A stretch of DNA of 64,000 nucleotides from an uncultured archaeon. GTDB taxonomy: Archaea > Aenigmatarchaeota > Aenigmatarchaeia > CG10238-14 > SCSR01. Shown piece after piece: positions 15,508-58,930 of this stretch. The stretch is taken from positions 10,356 through 74,355 of the forward strand of contig CAZICS010000002.1 in assembly GCA_964537835.1 (NCBI GenBank), written 5' to 3'. The notes under the pieces were generated by a model. That model was not told the DNA's origin. It saw only the letters and a program-made list of their open reading frames with translations, and searched no databases. A program made the translations under genes and the position numbers. The number at the start of each line of letters is the position of its first letter. Within the stretch, counting starts at the first letter, position 1.

Positions 15508-15525
15508 ATGTTATATGTATAACAT
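15508..15525. repeat. Copy 1 of the 18-nt palindrome family (ATGTTATA-TG-TATAACAT), 5 nt after the lhr stop
   Basis: Exact string ATGTTATATGTATAACAT, identical to the copy at 56291-56308. Confidence 0.9.
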
Positions 15526-15566
15526 TAAGTTTAAAACTATTTCTAAATTAACTTAGTTTGAGAGAT

Positions 15567-52800: not shown

Positions 52801-53124
52801 CTAATTTCTTTGAATCCTATTTTTTTCCTCTACAAACACGTCTAAAATATACCCATATTTTCTTATTTTTCTAATAGGAGGATTTTCTTTTATAAAACCT
52901 AGAGCATAGCTGATTATTCTATTTTTGTGAAGTGCAACCAGTAATACGCTCTTATCATCTTTTATCCTTTTCTTTGCAAATTTAATCCAAATTGTTTTCC
53001 CATTATTATTTCTTGCGTAATATTTTGGATCTAATTTTCTATGATGGAGATTCAACTTTCTGTGTAATTCTGCTATTTTTTCAACTTCTTGGATTTTAGC
53101 TTCTCTTATTATAAATTCTTCCAT
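52801..53124 (-). pseudogene. N-terminal fragment of a GNAT acetyltransferase (acetyl-CoA-binding motif A missing)
   Basis: IIREAKIQEVEKIAELHR...LLVALHKNRIISYALGF...GYILDVFVEEKNR then stops before the expected Q/RxxGxG/A motif. There is no room downstream, since the next gene ends at 52773. Confidence 0.5.
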
Positions 53125-53166
53125 AATTTTTACTAGGTTAAGAGTGAGATAAAACTATTTCCTCTA

Positions 53167-53736
53167 TTAATGTTTTGTTAATTCTAAAATCAACATTCCA
53201 GTTTTCAAAGCTTTCAATTCCCTTTTGCTCAACTTTCTTCGCTTCGCTTTCTCAGAAATTATCCCAGAATTTCCAAAGGGGTCTTTTATTATCAAGCTAA
53301 ACTTTTCCTTCCCTTCTCTCATCCTTTCAATTTTTTTGATCAGCTGCTTAACTTTTTCTAGTTTTTTCCCTTTTTGAACTCTAAGCTGAAATCTCAAAAC
53401 ATTTTCCACTCTTTCCAAAACTCCTTCCACGTTTGTAATAAATCCTTGGGCATAGCTTCCTGGCTCAATCTTAACTCCAAGCTCGGGAATTATTAGAGTA
53501 GCAGAAGAAGCTCTAATAACCTTTGCTGTTAAATCCTTTTCACTCTCGATTTCAATCTTGTAGCTTAAGGGTTCTTTTATCTCAACATTAAAAACATCGC
53601 TATGCTTAAACTTACAGTTTTCACATTTGGTGCTTAGGATTAAAATTTTTCCAAAATGCGGGATTTCTTGCGTACTCATGGAAAGTACTAAACTTTGTTT
53701 TTTACAGACAGGACAAATTGCTAGTTCCATATTCAA
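53167..53736 (-). CDS. ZPR1-type zinc-finger protein (archaeal ZPR1 homolog, COG1779)
   Basis: CPVCKK...QEIPHFGKILILSTKCENCKF zinc ribbon followed by the ZPR1 beta domain. Confidence 0.7.
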   Translation of the reverse strand: MNMELAICPVCKKQSLVLSMSTQEIPHFGKILILSTKCENCKFKHSDVFNVEIKEPLSYKIEIESEKDLTAKVIRASSATLIIPELGVKIEPGSYAQGFITNVEGVLERVENVLRFQLRVQKGKKLEKVKQLIKKIERMREGKEKFSLIIKDPFGNSGIISEKAKRRKLSKRELKALKTGMLILELTKH

Positions 53737-53766
53737 AATTATGAGAAAATAAATTAAAAGTCTTCT

Positions 53767-54624
53767 TTAAACAAAACTCTTGATCAATCCGAAAGAATGG
53801 TACAAGAAATCTTCGCATTCCATGCCTAGATAAACCAGCGTATAAATTAACTTTGCTTTTCTTTCGTTCCTTATTCCAGAGTCCAACAAAGCTTTCCCTA
53901 AAATTCTTTCCCAATTTTCTCTTTGGGTCAAATAATTCAAAGCATCTCTATAATTCTTCAAATATTTTTCTCTCAAAATCTCGTAGGTTTGCGAAATAGT
54001 ATTGTATTCTTTCTTGACAATCTCAACTTTTCCTTTTCTCAAAGCCTGGATTATACTATCTTTATCATTCCTAGAATTAACTTCGAGCAAAACTTTTCCA
54101 AGAGTTTTTAGAGAATGGGAATCGCTTCCTGCTAGGGCAATCTTATTCTCTTTCTCACAAAAAATTCTCGCTCTTAGGTTTGCTAGAGGATTTGCTTGAG
54201 AGTTAAAAATTTCTATCGCATCGACAAGCTTAGCTCTTTCTTTCATTCCAGCTATGCTAAAGCAATGGGGAGCTACGGTTAAGCCAGCCTGCTCTCTAAC
54301 CCAATCACAAAATTCCTCCAAAGATTTGGATTTTTGAAATTCCTCTATGCCTAAAGCTATTGCATGGTATTGCTCATCCCAAAACCAAAATTTTCTTCCA
54401 GTCTTAAAAGTTACTTCTACTCCAGGAATTATCACAAGCTCATACTTCTTTCCAGCTCTAATCCAAGCATTCAAGCCTTTTAAAGTATTGTGCTCAGTAA
54501 AACCAATCCATTCAAAGCCTAATTTTTTTGCGTATTTAACTATTTGGTTTGGAGAATAGCATGAGTCGAATTTTAAAATATCTCCGCTAGAATAAATGCT
54601 GTGGATATGATAATCTCCTTTCAT
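53767..54624 (-). CDS. PHP-domain metal-dependent phosphoesterase with C-terminal helical extension
   Basis: GDYHIHSIYS, FTEHN, APH and GSDSH motifs. Confidence 0.7.
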   Translation of the reverse strand: MKGDYHIHSIYSSGDILKFDSCYSPNQIVKYAKKLGFEWIGFTEHNTLKGLNAWIRAGKKYELVIIPGVEVTFKTGRKFWFWDEQYHAIALGIEEFQKSKSLEEFCDWVREQAGLTVAPHCFSIAGMKERAKLVDAIEIFNSQANPLANLRARIFCEKENKIALAGSDSHSLKTLGKVLLEVNSRNDKDSIIQALRKGKVEIVKKEYNTISQTYEILREKYLKNYRDALNYLTQRENWERILGKALLDSGIRNERKAKLIYTLVYLGMECEDFLYHSFGLIKSFV

Positions 54625-54662
54625 GCAAAATATTTTTTAAAATTTTCTTTGAAATAATTATT

Positions 54663-54818
54663 ATGAATTTTGGTGAGCTTGCATTAGCTGTTCTAGATTC
54701 TCTAGAAGATTTTGTTAATCAGCGGAAGATGCTAAGAAAAAGCTCGATGATTTTCTCGAAAAATCTGGTTATTCGCTATGGAGCGATTTCAGCAAAGATA
54801 GATACCAATGCCACGTAG
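54663..54818 (+). CDS. Possible small ORF (51 aa) in the largest intergenic gap
   Basis: Hand translation gives MNFGELALAVLDSLEDFVNQRKMLRKSSMIFSKNLVIRYGAISAKIDTNAT*. No RBS or motif support. Confidence 0.15.
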   Translation: MNFGELALAVLDSLEDFVNQRKMLRKSSMIFSKNLVIRYGAISAKIDTNAT

Positions 54819-54923
54819 AACTTTTAAGAGACCGAGAATTGTTTCTGTAGAATTTTTTTGTCATCAATTGTTAAGTCTAGCCGAAGTAAATGATTTAAAT
54901 TTTTAGCTTTAGATAATTGATGC

Positions 54924-55244
54924 ATGGGTAGGAGAGAAAGATTGCTTGTTATTTATGATATTTTAAAAGCCGCTAACGAAAAAGATGTTTTTGGCGAAGG
55001 GAGAGGAGCGACTAGAACGAGGATAATGTATAAAGCTAACTTAAACTCCGAGCAGCTCAAGATCTACCTTCCTTTACTCATCCAGCTAGGACTTTTGGAA
55101 GAAGCAAAAAATGGTAGGAATGTAAGGTATAGGCCGACAGAAGAAGGAATTAGATTTTTGAATTATATGGAGCCTGTTCGAAAATTTTTTATCGAATTCA
55201 TAAAGGCTGAAAGAGCCTATAAGCTTAAAAATAAGAGCTCCTGA
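54924..55244 (+). CDS. Winged-helix DNA-binding protein (COG3432/HTH_45-like)
   Basis: RLLVIYDILKAA...GATRTRIMYKANLNSEQLKIYLPLLIQLGLLEE...RYRPTEEGIRFL. Confidence 0.65.
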   Translation: MGRRERLLVIYDILKAANEKDVFGEGRGATRTRIMYKANLNSEQLKIYLPLLIQLGLLEEAKNGRNVRYRPTEEGIRFLNYMEPVRKFFIEFIKAERAYKLKNKSS

Positions 55245-55252
55245 TTTTAATT

Positions 55253-55747
55253 GTGAGGATTTATACGCTCGGCCACTCAACCCGAAGCTTTGAAGAATTC
55301 CTTTCCATCCTAAAAAAGTTTCGAGTAGAGCTAGTAATCGACGTAAGAAGGTTTCCTTCCAGCAAAAAATTCCCTTGGTTTAATAAAGAAAATCTGGAAA
55401 GAGAATTGGGGAAAGAAAAGATTGAGTACATCCATTTTCCTGAGCTCGGTGGCTATAGAAAAGAAGGTTATGCAAATTTTGCAAAGAGCGAGGAATTCAA
55501 AAAAGCTGTTGAAAAACTTTTGGAAGTTATAGACGAAAAGGTTGCTGCCATCTTTTGCTCAGAAATTCTATGGTGGCGCTGTCATCGAAGGTATATTGCA
55601 AACCATTTGGCAAAGCTTGGCCATCGAGTGATCCATATTTTCGACAAGGATAGGATTCAGGAGCACAGGCTTAAGGATAAGGAAATCCAAGAAAAGATGA
55701 AGTTGGTTGTTTATTGCGATAAGAAGGCTAGAAAGTTAAAGAGTTAA
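55253..55747 (+). CDS. DUF488-family protein
   Basis: IYTLGHSTRSFEEF...VIDVRRFPSSKKFPWFNKE...CSEILWWRCHRRYIANHL. GTG start. Confidence 0.75.
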   Translation: MRIYTLGHSTRSFEEFLSILKKFRVELVIDVRRFPSSKKFPWFNKENLERELGKEKIEYIHFPELGGYRKEGYANFAKSEEFKKAVEKLLEVIDEKVAAIFCSEILWWRCHRRYIANHLAKLGHRVIHIFDKDRIQEHRLKDKEIQEKMKLVVYCDKKARKLKS

Positions 55748-55764
55748 TGTTATATGTGTAACAT
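55747..55764. repeat. Palindrome family copy 2 (ATGTTATATGTGTAACAT; arms extend to TTAATGTTA/TAACATTAA), overlapping the DUF488 stop codon
   Basis: Exact string read at 55747-55764. Its exact reverse complement lies at 55843-55860. Confidence 0.9.
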
Positions 55765-55842
55765 TAAAAATAAATTGAATAAAGATATCCGTTGTAAAGT
55801 TCTTTAGCTTTTTACTAACCTTTTTCCAACCAGCCCCTAAAG

Positions 55843-55860
55843 ATGTTACACATATAACAT
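55843..55860. repeat. Palindrome family copy 3 (ATGTTACACATATAACAT), 5 nt beyond the stop of the minus-strand 111-aa gene
   Basis: Exact reverse complement of copy 2. Confidence 0.9.
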
Positions 55861-55865
55861 TTTTC

Positions 55866-56198
55866 TCAATCCAAATCAAGCTTTTTAATTTTGTATTCAA
55901 TCCCAGCGTTTATACAGTAAGCATTCAAGGAAGAAAGAATTTTCTCATAGTTGTACCAGCTTTTAGTAGTTTCAAGCAATACAAGTTCCCCTCCTTTCTC
56001 ATTCTCCTCCAGCAAGACGAACAAAATTCTTACCACATCCTTCTCAGCCAAGCTTCTTGTAATCAAGACGTCTTTAGTAGGCTGAAAAATCTGGTAGGTT
56101 CTTTTTAATCTCTCCGCTACTTCCTCCAAACTTTTCGCTTCCTTATACTCATAGTTGAAAGTCAAAACCCTCTTGAGAGTTTTTGAGAAAGTTTTCAT
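55866..56198 (-). CDS. Hypothetical protein (110 aa), ORFan
   Basis: ORF with ATG at 56198; the track start at 56201 is a TTG. An A/T-rich TATA-like TTTTTAAAAA lies about 30 nt upstream. No motif. Confidence 0.45.
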   Translation of the reverse strand: MKTFSKTLKRVLTFNYEYKEAKSLEEVAERLKRTYQIFQPTKDVLITRSLAEKDVVRILFVLLEENEKGGELVLLETTKSWYNYEKILSSLNAYCINAGIEYKIKKLDLD

Positions 56199-56290
56199 CA
56201 AAGCTTATAATAGGGTTAAGGTTTTTAAAAATTTTGTCACGCAAGCATAATTTTAATTAAGCGTTAAATTAATTACTCTAAACTGGCTGA

Positions 56291-56308
56291 ATGTTATATG
56301 TATAACAT
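56291..56308. repeat. Palindrome family copy 4 (ATGTTATATGTATAACAT)
   Basis: Identical to copy 1 at 15508. Confidence 0.9.
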
Positions 56309-56330
56309 TAATACGAATTCACGCATAAGC

Positions 56331-56348
56331 ATGTTACACATATAACAA
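56331..56348. repeat. Palindrome family copy 5 (ATGTTACACATATAACAa; 17/18 match to copy 3)
   Basis: Read at 56331-56348. It lies 6 nt beyond the stop of a hand-found 37-aa minus-strand ORF. Confidence 0.85.
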
Positions 56349-56354
56349 AAAAAG

Positions 56355-56468
56355 CTATTCCAAGAAAGGCATGTATTTTTTCACATAATCTTTCAAGTCA
56401 GCTTTTGTTAGATTCTTAGAAGTAAGGCTTAGCCATTCTTTTTTCTCCTTTTCCAATTCCTCCAGCAT
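56355..56468 (-). CDS. Possible mini-ORF (37 aa)
   Basis: Hand translation gives MLEELEKEKKEWLSLTSKNLTKADLKDYVKKYMPFLE*. It lies between the 195-aa gene and the palindrome pair. Confidence 0.25.
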   Translation of the reverse strand: MLEELEKEKKEWLSLTSKNLTKADLKDYVKKYMPFLE

Positions 56469-56498
56469 AATTTCTTTTAGAAGCCTAAGCCTTTTAAA

Positions 56499-57086
56499 TC
56501 ATGCAATGTATCTCAAAGCCTCCTTATCAATTTTTTTCTTCCTCAAAACTTTTTTAATTTTAATATTACCCTTTTTAACCTCTTCCCGCAATTTTTCGTA
56601 CAACTCGACAAAAGGACAAACCAAAGCAGCAACCCTTAGAGTAAAAATTTTAATCTTTCTAACTCGCTTTTCCAAATTCTCAAAATTTTCTTTCTCCCCT
56701 TTACTCAGCAAAACAAAAGCTGCCTTAGCTAAGCTAGAAGGAATTTTACTAACCTGTACTTTTCCTTGCAAGATATACCTGAGCAAAACAAAGTTTATGA
56801 AGTCATCTCTGCTAGCTTTTTTGTTCAAGAATTTAGCCAATTTTAAAAATCTTTCCTCAAAATCCTTCGGCTTATTCTTGATTTTTATCAAGGAAGTTTT
56901 TAAATTGTTTAGAGCAAACGCAACAAACTCGAGCATTTCCTCAGCCATCCTTTGCTTTTCGTCGAAGGGTATTTTTACAACCTTCCTTTTAGTAAAATAA
57001 ATGTCATCGCAAGTTTTGCAAATCTCTAGCAAAAACTTTTGATAGAGGAAATCTTCTAGCGCAATCTCAAACTCGAGTTCCCTCAT
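56499..57086 (-). CDS. Hypothetical helical protein (195 aa), ORFan
   Basis: It is the longest ORF at this locus. The overlapping plus-strand ORF (56506..57000) is an L/F/S/K-rich shadow of this K/E-rich frame. Confidence 0.5.
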   Translation of the reverse strand: MRELEFEIALEDFLYQKFLLEICKTCDDIYFTKRKVVKIPFDEKQRMAEEMLEFVAFALNNLKTSLIKIKNKPKDFEERFLKLAKFLNKKASRDDFINFVLLRYILQGKVQVSKIPSSLAKAAFVLLSKGEKENFENLEKRVRKIKIFTLRVAALVCPFVELYEKLREEVKKGNIKIKKVLRKKKIDKEALRYIA

Positions 57087-57132
57087 CCTCTCAAGTATAA
57101 GTTTGGTTTAAGGATTTTAAAAAGGTTGATAG

Positions 57133-57297
57133 CTAAAAGTAGAGCTGCTCCAAATAATCTCCACATCCTAAGTTGATCAATACCATTCGCGTAAATGGTC
57201 GGAGAACTTCCTTAAACTTGCAAAGAGTCGAATTTTTATCACGAATTGGCTTCTTGTTAGCTAAGACCTTATAATCTTTTGCAAACTTTATAGCCAT
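57133..57297 (-). CDS. Possible small ORF (54 aa from the internal ATG)
   Basis: MAIKFAKDYKVLANKKPIRDKNSTLCKFKEVLRPFTRMVLINLGCGDYLEQLYF. The ATG lies 11 nt after the stop of the 89-aa gene. The track start at 57351 is a TTG inside that gene. Confidence 0.3.
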   Translation of the reverse strand: MAIKFAKDYKVLANKKPIRDKNSTLCKFKEVLRPFTRMVLINLGCGDYLEQLYF

Positions 57298-57308
57298 AGG
57301 AGAAGGAT

Positions 57309-57578
57309 TTACCAAGCTAACCCATCCAGGCTGTAGTAAGGTAAATCCCAATAATACTTTATTCCTGGTTTTTCCAATAGATTCCCTATCTCATCCTCGA
57401 TTTCTACCAAGCCATTATCCCAAAAGCTAACCCTAGCCTTTCTTCTAACTCTTCCGTCTTTCTCTAATTCAACAAAAACTTTTATCTCATGTATACCATA
57501 AGCTTCTTTAAGCTCCTTGAATTTCCTTCCCTCAATTTCAGCTATTATTTCTCTCCAATCTTTTTCCATTCGGATCAT
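57309..57578 (-). CDS. Hypothetical protein (89 aa), first gene of the ORFan operon
   Basis: ORF divergent from the LAGLIDADG-wHTH gene; no motif. Confidence 0.45.
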   Translation of the reverse strand: MIRMEKDWREIIAEIEGRKFKELKEAYGIHEIKVFVELEKDGRVRRKARVSFWDNGLVEIEDEIGNLLEKPGIKYYWDLPYYSLDGLAW

Positions 57579-57748
57579 TTTTAGATTGTTCTTAAACCTT
57601 TTATTTTTTTCTTAGCTTCGAAAAATTTTCTTTTCCGAGCGAGTTCTCTCCAATTTCTTCTTTTCTAATTTCTTTACCGGAAATGAACTCCAGTAAAGTT
57701 TAAATACTAGTTTTATAAATTATATTTATAGAAATTAAATTTTACAAG

Positions 57749-58930
57749 GTGAAATGTATGGAGTTTGGTATTGAGTCTGAAACAAAAGATTTTATGGTTG
57801 AAAGAAATGGAAAAAGATTCATCGACCTAACAAAGATTTTGCCAGAAAGATTGCCGAGCGGGAAGCTAATTTTGTGGAAGCAAATAGATGAGGAAAAAAT
57901 AGAAATTTTTGTCGACAAGCATTCAGCGCCAGGCGGGAATCCCAAGCCGATAAGGATAAAGAGGTTTATCGAGATAAATGAATTACTATTTGAAGGGCTT
58001 GGGTTAAGATTTGGGGATGGATTAAAAATACAAGGAGGGAAAAAAATCGTGTTTGGTTTTTCTAATACGAATCTAGAGCTTCATAAACATTTTCTCAAAT
58101 TTGCAAAAGAATGCCTAGGAATAGACTCAAAAGAGTTTAGAGTCGCATTAACTATTCCACCTGTCCTAAGTGATAAAATTAAAGAATTGGAAGAGAAAAT
58201 TTCGAGAGAGCTAAGAATTCCTTTAGAAAATTTTTTCACTGCCAGGATTTTAGAGAAAAGTAAGCAACCTATTATAAACACCAAAATAAACTCTGCGATA
58301 TTGGGTAGGGTTATAGAGAGAATGTTCCAAAGCTTGAAAGATATTCTATTGAATAGGACTTTTTCTGCAGCCTTTTTAAAAGGCGTTATCGCTTCTGAAG
58401 CGAACATTAGCTTACGAAATGGTAAACTAGATGAAATTTCCATCGGAAGCAAGGAAAAACCAAATCGAGAACTTATTCGCCTACTTTTACTAAATTTAAG
58501 TATTTTTCCAAACAAGGATAAAGAAATAGAAGGACAAGAAGCTGTGCTCCTTCATGGGCTTTCTAACTTTAGAAAAATGAGAGAATGGAACTTAGTTTCC
58601 TTACATCCAGAAAAATTTGAAGCATTTGAAAGGGGACTAAAAGGTTTTAAGAAAGAGGAATTTAGAAAGGGGGAGGCAAAATTGCTCATTCTTCAAAGTT
58701 TGACCAAATCTTCAAAAAATATTACTCAATTAGCAAAAGAACTTGGAAGAGCTTGGAGGTCGATAGTAGATCATCTCTGGGTTTTAGAAGATCTAGGATT
58801 AGTTGGAAGGAGAAGAGTTAGCAGAAGAGTTATCTGGTTTATTACAGAAAAAGGTAAGGAAATGCTTAAAGATGAAAATGCATTAGAAAAATTAAGAATA
58901 GGTCTTCCTCGAAAGAAAAGTAACCACTGA
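57749..58930 (+). CDS. LAGLIDADG-like double-motif protein fused to a C-terminal winged-helix domain
   Basis: Motifs FEGLGLRFGDGLKI and AAFLKGVIASEANISL lie about 125 aa apart. C-terminal wHTH is ITQLAKELGRAWRSIVDHLWVLEDLGLVGRRRVSRRVIWFITEKGKE. GTG 57749 or ATG 57758 is the start. Confidence 0.55.
   Translation: MKCMEFGIESETKDFMVERNGKRFIDLTKILPERLPSGKLILWKQIDEEKIEIFVDKHSAPGGNPKPIRIKRFIEINELLFEGLGLRFGDGLKIQGGKKIVFGFSNTNLELHKHFLKFAKECLGIDSKEFRVALTIPPVLSDKIKELEEKISRELRIPLENFFTARILEKSKQPIINTKINSAILGRVIERMFQSLKDILLNRTFSAAFLKGVIASEANISLRNGKLDEISIGSKEKPNRELIRLLLLNLSIFPNKDKEIEGQEAVLLHGLSNFRKMREWNLVSLHPEKFEAFERGLKGFKKEEFRKGEAKLLILQSLTKSSKNITQLAKELGRAWRSIVDHLWVLEDLGLVGRRRVSRRVIWFITEKGKEMLKDENALEKLRIGLPRKKSNH

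Follow-up and report, generated by a model that had tools for sequence, protein, structure and literature searches.

Why does one short palindrome stand at five places in a single stretch of an archaeal genome, with four of the five copies clustered around one small gene? The window considered here is a stretch of 64,000 nucleotides, C2:10356-74355, from the Aenigmatarchaeota genome designated G000 (773 kb in 34 contigs, 35% G+C, assembly 88% complete). An earlier note on the window, made from its letters, offered a repetitive extragenic palindromic (REP)-like RNA element, binding sites for a dimeric DNA-binding protein, or the remnants of a tiny mobile element as explanations. The palindromes belong to a site family that is real, selected and intergenic. 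We hold it moderately probable that they are operator-type sites of a dimeric, self-repressing DNA-binding protein of about 68 residues, referred to here as mini-Cas2, and that the dispersed copies act as promoter-proximal or roadblock sites. Operator architecture, covariation, co-occurrence and correct predictions show a cognate relationship between the site family and the mini-cas2 genes.

The window was scanned with the pattern ATGTTAYAYRTRTAACAT at up to two mismatches, and chance was estimated also from 100 shuffles. The scan recovered all five copies of the earlier note, the last with one mismatch, against 0.01 matches expected by chance; five or more matches occurred in 0 of the 100 shuffles. 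The letters confirm that copies 1 and 4 are the same sequence and that copy 3 is the reverse complement of copy 2. The copies are given below together with their counterparts in G002, a member of the same genus with ~90% nucleotide identity.

15508..15525, no strand: copy 1, ATGTTATATGTATAACAT, 4 nt past the stop of an lhr-like helicase open reading frame (ORF; stop 15503); the G002 orthologue is GTTATACGTATAAC
55747..55764, no strand: copy 2, ATGTTATATGTGTAACAT, overlapping the DUF488 stop codon by that codon's final base, between convergent genes; the centre is CG in the G002 orthologue
55843..55860, no strand: copy 3, ATGTTACACATATAACAT, copy 2 in exact reverse complement, its distance from the stop of the 111-aa gene on the minus strand being 5 nt
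56291..56308, no strand: copy 4, ATGTTATATGTATAACAT, upstream of the 111-aa gene and 90 nt from its start
56331..56348, no strand: copy 5, ATGTTACACATATAACAA, a 17/18 match, 22 nt from copy 4 and downstream of a 195-aa gene

A genome-wide count, which had been proposed along with the first description of the repeat, was made with the 14-nt core GTTAYAYRTRTAAC at up to one mismatch, gene positions being taken from simple ORF calls. It gave 27 copies at 17 loci in G000, where the core is the commonest 14-16-mer repeat apart from tRNA T-arms. The sites are frequently paired or arranged in triplets, 36-96 bp apart, and all 27 copies are intergenic, save for overlaps with doubtful short ORFs. Their flanks are unrelated between copies, so the conserved element is only 14-18 nt long and a larger conserved element or miniature inverted-repeat transposable element is ruled out. 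Association with tRNA or other known RNAs was likewise dropped, as only one of all the sites lies near a tRNA and no Rfam family matched in the window. The genome contains no repeat resembling those of CRISPR arrays, its repeat families being the palindrome and the tRNA arms only, and its base composition gives no sign of a chimeric bin.

The exact 16-mer was counted in 40 relatives of G000. It occurs 27 times in G002 and 26 times in G030, which belongs to another family and where every copy is the perfect palindrome TGTTATACGTATAACA; ten other genomes hold 1-9 copies, and 28 of the 40, including four members of the same genus, hold none. Site positions are orthologous between G000 and G002. 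Across 18 orthologous site pairs, none of the 198 arm positions compared (11 per pair) has changed, as compared with 8.3% divergence in the 60-nt flanks, and the arms are under strong purifying selection. The centre behaves differently: CG in G002 has become TG or CA in G000 in 12 of the 18 pairs. In 55 kb of alignments between the two genomes, 58% of the ACGT words of G002 read ATGT or ACAT in G000, as against 12% in the reverse direction. Because this ACGT decay runs genome-wide and is not specific to the sites, the degenerate YAYRTR centre of G000, which in relatives is ACGT-centred (TACGTA or CACGTG), is best read as a by-product of lineage-wide ACGT/CpG decay, and the site centre would seem to tolerate any pyrimidine-purine step. 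CpG loss in the same alignments is 37% toward G000 and 18% in the reverse direction. A C5-methylase was rejected as the source of the decay, since no C5-methyltransferase gene (PF00145) was found in the G000 assembly.

The candidate binder emerged from the genus of G027 and G035, where the sites are few and gathered in one region; one small ORF lies there, and its homologues always have a site directly upstream. The family to which it belongs, mini-Cas2, scores just under the curated cut-offs for Cas2 (Pfam 21.4 against 23.8, TIGR01573 23.2 against 24.5). An AlphaFold model has a predicted local distance difference test (pLDDT) score of 95 and β-α-β-β-α-β topology, and all top Foldseek matches in the PDB are Cas2 or VapD, with template modelling (TM) scores of ~0.7. 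The model thus assigns mini-Cas2 the Cas2 fold. An Asp in the β1 signature 'xDI' and a β2-β3 signature 'VQxSVW/F' are conserved. A profile search over 41 relatives found mini-Cas2 in 27, a single genome holding as many as 18 copies (G009), and public metagenomes contain more than 117 clusters, mostly from Aenigmatarchaeota. The family is independent of CRISPR: Cas1 occurs in only five of the 41 relatives (not in G000, G002, G030 or G034) and G000 lacks CRISPR-like repeats. The literature search returned no description of the family, no mention of the motif in a relevant context and no Cas2 with sequence-specific DNA recognition; to our knowledge, no Cas2 that recognises a specific DNA sequence has been described.

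The upstream regions of ~45 mini-Cas2 members were examined, and the pairings given below were read from the listed sequences. About 35 of the 45, from more than 20 genomes, have a perfect palindrome of 14-20 bp between the B recognition element (BRE)/TATA box ('atagaaaaRtatttatataa') and the ATG. The TATA centre lies ~26 nt before the mini-cas2 ATG, a distance that implies a leaderless mRNA and places the site over the transcription start region. In G002, G027, G035 and G034/L067, a gene of 68-69 aa has a site of the window type 3-8 nt ahead of its ATG. Operator centres are mostly ACGT across the family, while the arms vary between paralogues even inside one genome; the seven paralogues of G010 have seven operators of their own. 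Paralogue-specific operators include GTAATACGTATTAC, GTAAAACGTTTTAC, GTTAGACGTCTAAC, GTCTCACGTGAGAC, TTCACACGTGTGAA, GATACACGTGTATC, GTCCAACGTTGGAC and GAAATACGTATTTC, among others. Pairings between the motif of helix α1 and the operator half-site recur across genomes, as follows.

α1 TERRQLNR with half-site GTCTCAC: G006, G030 (two copies), G010
α1 VAVAVKVWR with half-site GTAAAAC: G010, G009
α1 (A/L)RVRxFR with half-site GTAATAC: G031, G030, G011, G038, G009
α1 LRV(R/K)VNR or ERVxIxR with half-site GTTATAC: G002, G027, G035, G034, G010
α1 LQVQVNR with half-site GTTAGAC: G001
α1 ERK(R/H) with half-site TCACAC: G011, G009

Six metagenome proteins that had not been used before served as a prospective test, in which the operator type was predicted from α1 alone. 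The type was right in four of the six, and the order TATA-palindrome-ATG was present in five.

P0016: GTTAGAC predicted, correct
P0051: GTAATAC predicted, correct
P0099: GTTAYAC predicted, correct
P0053: GAAATAC predicted, correct
P0058: GTAAAAC predicted, wrong type, with a new palindrome, GTGATACGTATCAC, at the right place
P0062: GTTATAC predicted, no palindrome

All 13 motif-bearing genomes have mini-Cas2 (Fisher one-sided p ~0.001, calculated by hand). Each paralogue-specific palindrome also recurs at other intergenic positions of its genome. G001, a member of the genus in which the 16-mer is absent, carries GTTAGACGTCTAAC, which is its own paralogue's operator, at ten dispersed places; the same sequence has three copies in G004 and one in G003. 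Dispersed copies of their own operator types, three or four in each genome, occur in G011, G038 and G019. None of 36 operator variants is present in G005, which belongs to the same genus and is without the mini-Cas2 family. For the GTTATAC sites of G030, a candidate cognate paralogue has the operator GCGTATACGTATAACAC, its two gene copies lying at contig ends. In G001, G012 and a metagenome relative, an extra operator copy stands ~11 nt upstream of the TATA box of the TFB paralogue that follows mini-cas2. Across these genomes, dispersal is a property of the site/mini-Cas2 system itself.

The mechanism that we propose begins with a mini-Cas2 homodimer, which would read two half-sites (GTTAYAC in the G000 lineage) through helix α1. 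Once bound, the protein would repress its own promoter, a site between TATA and ATG being where archaeal repressors classically sit. Additional binding sites would be provided by the dispersed copies, the five of the window among them. Copies that abut the BRE/TATA of a downstream gene could modulate initiation, and copies behind stops or between convergent genes could serve as bidirectional protein roadblocks or insulators, in the manner of mycobacteriophage 'stoperators'.

The idea of sites for a dimeric DNA-binding protein, raised when the repeat was first described, is therefore supported in its general form, with a factor that tracks the sites, the 68-aa Cas2-like protein, encoded elsewhere; the two binders then named do not fare as well. 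The COG3432 winged helix-turn-helix (wHTH) protein (54924-55244) has weak scattered matches in relatives and none in the site-rich G030 and G034, and the LAGLIDADG-wHTH gene (57749-58930) lies in an island that genus relatives lack. Seven neighbouring proteins were searched as one concatenated query in 41 relatives. These were the 90-aa wHTH protein at C2:74300, the 111-aa ORFan, the COG3432 wHTH protein, a TrmB-like 132-aa protein, an 82-aa wHTH protein and the 195-aa and 89-aa ORFs; all were rejected as binders, having no match in G030 or G034. The 90-aa wHTH protein is common in motif-free genomes. No conserved neighbour gene of mini-Cas2 was found across the family, and the lack of a conserved partner argues that no alternative real binder is present in the neighbourhood. 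The neighbours that do occur include HEPN-MNT (G002), an Endonuc_Holl nuclease (G027/G035) and TFB paralogues, and no mini-Cas2 members were found on viral contigs.

Placement relative to genes is compatible with a roadblock, as the sites stand right behind stops, never within genes and upstream of the next promoter. The 17 loci of G000 comprise nine between tandem, five between convergent and three between divergent genes, six of the 27 copies being in the divergent class, and a distant relative shows a similar mix of intergenic classes. Between tandem genes, the site is close behind the upstream stop and 40-70 nt before the next start codon, a distance that fits a site needing to keep clear of the promoter. 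A recurrent layout noted by eye has a TATA-like box a few to ~12 nt past the site, often 9-12 nt after the core, and the same order of site and TATA is also seen at a TFB promoter. Three features of the window are needed to follow its copies.

15530..15537, plus strand: TATA-like box TTTAAAAC, 4 nt from the 3' end of copy 1, its centre 33 nt before the ATG (15567) of the next gene
55253..55747, plus strand: DUF488-type gene, its stop abutting copy 2; genus relatives conserve it next to a different island
55866..56201, minus strand: 111-aa ORFan, with no Pfam family, found only in G000 and G002

The 111-aa ORFan is bracketed by the clustered copies as the earlier note had described, copy 3 lying on one side and copies 4 and 5 on the other. 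The same note placed every copy in the window next to a stop codon, and this part of the description stood only partly. It holds for copies 1 (lhr-like, 15503), 2 (DUF488, 55747) and 3 (111-aa gene, 55866), but copy 4 adjoins no stop and copy 5 only a doubtful 37-aa ORF. Although ~10 of the 27 copies genome-wide lie within 25 nt of a stop, the rule is not general.

Closeness to stop codons could also mean that the element works at the RNA level, as a transcribed gene-end palindrome that terminates transcription or forms a hairpin stabilising the 3' end. Several copies do lie 1-10 nt past stop codons, and in ~9 of 11 asymmetric G000 copies (hand count) the strand of the nearest gene gives a U-G and not a C-A closing pair, although C-to-T change on the non-template strand would account for this bias equally well. 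The hairpins consist of 6-10 A-U-rich pairs with energies of -3.3 to -7.1 kcal/mol and z of 0 to -3.3, and two of the five are no better than shuffles. No T-tract follows the copies, and none of them coincides with a terminator-like match. The copies between divergent genes also speak against this explanation, as does the cognate-gene site, which lies upstream of the inferred transcription start and is thus untranscribed. We consider an RNA-level role extremely improbable. A REP-like stability or termination element, the first of the three original suggestions, is not supported for the same reasons (hairpins of -3 to -7 kcal/mol, no T-tract, copies in divergent promoter regions) and because no RAYT/Y1 was found in the site-rich genomes; the Y1/RAYT transposase (PF01797) is not in G000, G002, G030 or G034.

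The uneven spread of the sites in G000, with 19 of the 27 copies on contigs C2 and C3 and 0 on the 164-kb contig C1, would suit parS-like centromere or chromosome-organising sites of a ParB-type protein. Some G002 copies (TGTTACACGTGTAACA) also match the bacterial parS consensus, TGTTNCACGTGNAACA, and clusters of the same 14-mer occur on phage and bacterial contigs. Such a role is nevertheless hardly credible, given that ParB_N (PF02195) has no match in G000 in a search whose control was positive in 11 of 14 reference genomes, that the sites are strictly intergenic, and that the paralogue-specific variants follow mini-Cas2 genes and not a partition operon. Pairs of the 14-mer turn up in unrelated bacteria and phages, for example in Parafrankia between a LacI-type regulator and its divergent target, and the 14-mer shape is therefore a generic operator form and not evidence of homology. 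Two phage contigs, L070 (IMG/VR) and L069, carry 6-7 copies of GTTACACGTG(T/A)AAC, several of which in L070 lie directly past the stops of structural genes; the arrangement in L070 looks like a stoperator- or parS-like layout of an unrelated system.

A further explanation takes the palindromes to be selfish, REP-like elements that copy themselves into intergenic DNA, with mini-Cas2 as their nuclease or mobilising enzyme and any effect on neighbouring genes incidental. The phyletic distribution is patchy, copies are found in all kinds of intergenic region, and in G030 an invariant 14-mer recurs in at least 33 copies whose places are non-orthologous, which is far more information than ~30 sites require. 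Mini-Cas2 is itself multi-copy, lies at contig ends in G030 and conserves the β1 Asp. Indel and rearrangement breakpoints between G000 and G002 are often beside sites, the clearest being 'site-site-lyase-like gene-site-RelE/RHH pair-site' (RHH, ribbon-helix-helix) in G002 against a single site in G000. In contrast, the absence of any shared flank leaves no transposable unit beyond the palindrome, and neither Y1/RAYT nor a serine or correlated tyrosine recombinase was found; as partners, tyrosine and serine recombinases and the Y1 transposase show no correlation with the motif. The arms have been under purifying selection across the whole G000-G002 divergence, and the constant placement that the site has at the cognate gene, between TATA and ATG, favours a regulatory operator. 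Comparison of relatives for presence/absence polymorphism, another of the proposals made with the first description, gave no true empty site, and the single site found in G002 only has a decayed counterpart in G000. Of the suggested mobile-element remnants, some spread or turnover is thus real, as seen from the non-orthologous places in distant relatives and the breakpoints beside sites, but remnants as such are not shown. Selfish palindromes are, on balance, an unlikely explanation.

The same breakpoints invite comparison with recombination or cassette-boundary sites of the Acinetobacter pdif or integron attC type, at which cassettes such as the 111-aa ORFan or the G002 toxin-antitoxin pair would be inserted and excised. 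The insertion in G002 (L002, contig C5, 3105-5448, as compared with G000 C27:1722) is 2.3 kb long and bounded by direct copies of the site. It holds a lyase-like gene of 491 aa together with a RelE/RHH toxin-antitoxin pair, with palindromes bounding each block. Single genes bracketed by sites occur in G000, G030 and G035, and the window sites lie within an island that varies among genus members. However, the sole tyrosine recombinase (XerA-like, on C26; PF00589) is also present in motif-free relatives and was undetected in G030 and G034, no serine recombinases were found, and the conserved 14-18 bp are shorter than an 11-6-11 Xer site. Ordinary short-repeat deletion between two identical 14-mers accounts for the G000/G002 indel with no dedicated enzyme. 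Cassette boundaries are therefore judged very unlikely. A LAGLIDADG gene at G000 C3:56071-56901 is missing from the otherwise collinear G002 contig.

The island that contains four of the five copies extends from a conserved 371-aa gene to TFB (window 53100-58930). It consists in G000 and G002 of a PHP-type gene, the COG3432 wHTH gene, DUF488, the 111-, 195- and 89-aa ORFans and the LAGLIDADG-wHTH gene, in G001 of only DUF488 and one other gene, and in G005 of a different pair.

Returning to the preferred reading, in which the palindromes are operator-type sites of a self-repressing mini-Cas2, several observations weigh against it. It is from genomic covariation alone that we infer mini-Cas2 to be the binder. 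The sites of the distant, site-rich G030 lie beside non-orthologous genes, which leaves no conserved regulon; the genes flanking them are not orthologous to the site neighbours of G000, site orthology being confined to the close pair G000/G002, and a conserved regulon was rejected on these grounds. The five of 17 loci between convergent genes offer nothing for a classical operator to regulate. Members without a palindrome exist, namely P0062 and a subset of the family in the NusG-L11-L1 neighbourhood. The metal-binding Asp that ends β1 in Cas2 is kept in at least 90% of members, a conservation that a nuclease fits at least as well as a pure regulator. The G000 assembly has one mini-Cas2 only (C4:45294-45500), whose operator, GAAATAYRTATTTC (also given as GAAATATGTATTTC), is not the window motif, and a metagenome contig that matches the start of G000 contig C32 with full identity has a different gene where G002 has the site and mini-cas2.

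The last two points concern the cognate gene of the window sites. The cognate gene of G002 falls at a contig gap of G000, contig C32 beginning 19 nt away from where the site is expected. Either G000 has its GTTAYAC-type gene unassembled elsewhere or that gene was lost recently, an old loss being argued against by the complete conservation of the arms. The operator GAAATATGTATTTC of the C4 gene is single-copy in G000.

Several neighbourhoods of mini-Cas2 are worth recording. Next after the C4 gene comes a TFB zinc-ribbon remnant of 64 aa, and at the same position G001, G012 and the metagenome relative have a full 310-aa TFB paralogue with its own upstream palindrome. The HEPN-type gene divergent from mini-cas2 in G002 (G000 C32 start, L002 8560-8900, L132) has an internal deletion in G000 and in the metagenome contig Ga0190363_1000086. 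The subfamily in the conserved NusG-L11-L1 ribosomal-protein neighbourhood (L103, L100, L099 and L101, from G007, G008, G021 and G024) has no upstream palindrome and may be an ancestral, non-dispersed form. Just past the window, at C2:74672-74793 (window coordinates 64317-64438), three more copies separate the gene of the conserved 90-aa wHTH protein from that of a HAD-type hydrolase. Ahead of the first copy stands a TATA-like 'gatatttataaaagat'; no gene lies behind it, and it may be the relic of a mini-cas2 promoter. GATC is strongly under-represented in G000 (observed/expected 0.48, Markov estimate), with GCGC at 0.68 and GTAC at 0.73, which hints at past or present restriction systems targeting those sites.

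The conserved catalytic Asp and the breakpoints beside sites would also fit a nuclease or mobility role. Mini-Cas2 would then be a Cas1-independent, sequence-specific nuclease or nickase, and the palindromes its cut sites and hot spots for the gain, loss and shuffling of cassettes, a possibility that we regard as decidedly unlikely. If true, the cassettes would be ORFans, toxin-antitoxin pairs, defence genes and TFB paralogues in minimal genomes, and mini-Cas2 would be a free-living relative of the toxin-like Cas2 ancestor that has been proposed for the adaptation module of CRISPR, and its specificity helix would evolve easily.

For mini-Cas2 as a repressor, the repressor/stoperator system of Cluster A mycobacteriophages would be the closest described analogue. 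In these phages (L5 gp71 and relatives), a promoter site is accompanied by more than 20 copies of a 13-14-bp site in short intergenic spaces (PMC9283540, PMC6550527). The stoperator copies have been proposed to halt elongating RNA polymerase, and the specificities of repressor and site diversify together (PMC9283540, PMC6550527). Both systems would combine a small regulator, a promoter site with many intergenic copies in a compact genome, and co-diversifying specificity. Stoperators lack symmetry, follow the direction of transcription and, in a phage genome, bind a monomeric helix-turn-helix (HTH) protein of two domains, whereas the sites described here are perfect palindromes without orientation in a cellular archaeal genome, the candidate binder has a Cas2 fold, and the roadblock is proposed from placement only.

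Mini-Cas2 shares with Cas2, a subunit of CRISPR adaptation, and with the toxin VapD the β-α-β-β-α-β fold, the β1 'xDI' Asp and the 'VQxSVW/F' signature. It differs from canonical Cas2 in its length of ~68 aa without the C-terminal extension, its Pfam and TIGRFAM scores below cut-off, its copy number of up to 18 per genome, mostly without Cas1 or a CRISPR array, and the private palindromic operator of each gene. The C proteins of restriction-modification systems, with their C-boxes, and autoregulated antitoxins are very small dimers that bind a palindrome in their own promoter, with orthogonal specificities among homologues. Mini-cas2 is also found beside accessory or defence-type cargo, as these genes are; the C proteins and most of the antitoxins are HTH or RHH proteins with sites limited to their own operon, whereas dozens of extra genomic copies and another fold are seen here. 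REP/RAYT systems likewise have short extragenic palindromes, often paired and just past stops, that are lineage-specific. REPs, however, are imperfect palindromes of 20-40 nt in hundreds of copies that flank a RAYT gene, in contrast to a perfect 14-18-nt palindrome with no Y1 transposase found and with copies also in divergent promoters. The DNA-binding domains of papillomavirus E2 and EBNA1 are ferredoxin-like β-α-β-β-α-β dimers that read a short palindrome with helix α1. They provide a precedent only for such a fold reading palindromic DNA, having no sequence relationship to mini-Cas2.

If the reading is confirmed, no protein of the Cas2 fold would have been shown before mini-Cas2 to recognise a specific DNA sequence. 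There would also be a family of small, mutually orthogonal repressor-operator pairs, with ~20 specificities of 14 bp read from genomes and an apparent code in one helix, and a cellular archaeal counterpart of phage stoperators. The finding bears on the origin of Cas2, solo Cas2 homologues usually being taken for toxins, and would account for a repeat family that is conspicuous in Aenigmatarchaeota bins, along with the contig breaks that adjoin it. It would also bear on how transcription units that adjoin each other are insulated in archaea whose intergenic regions are tiny.

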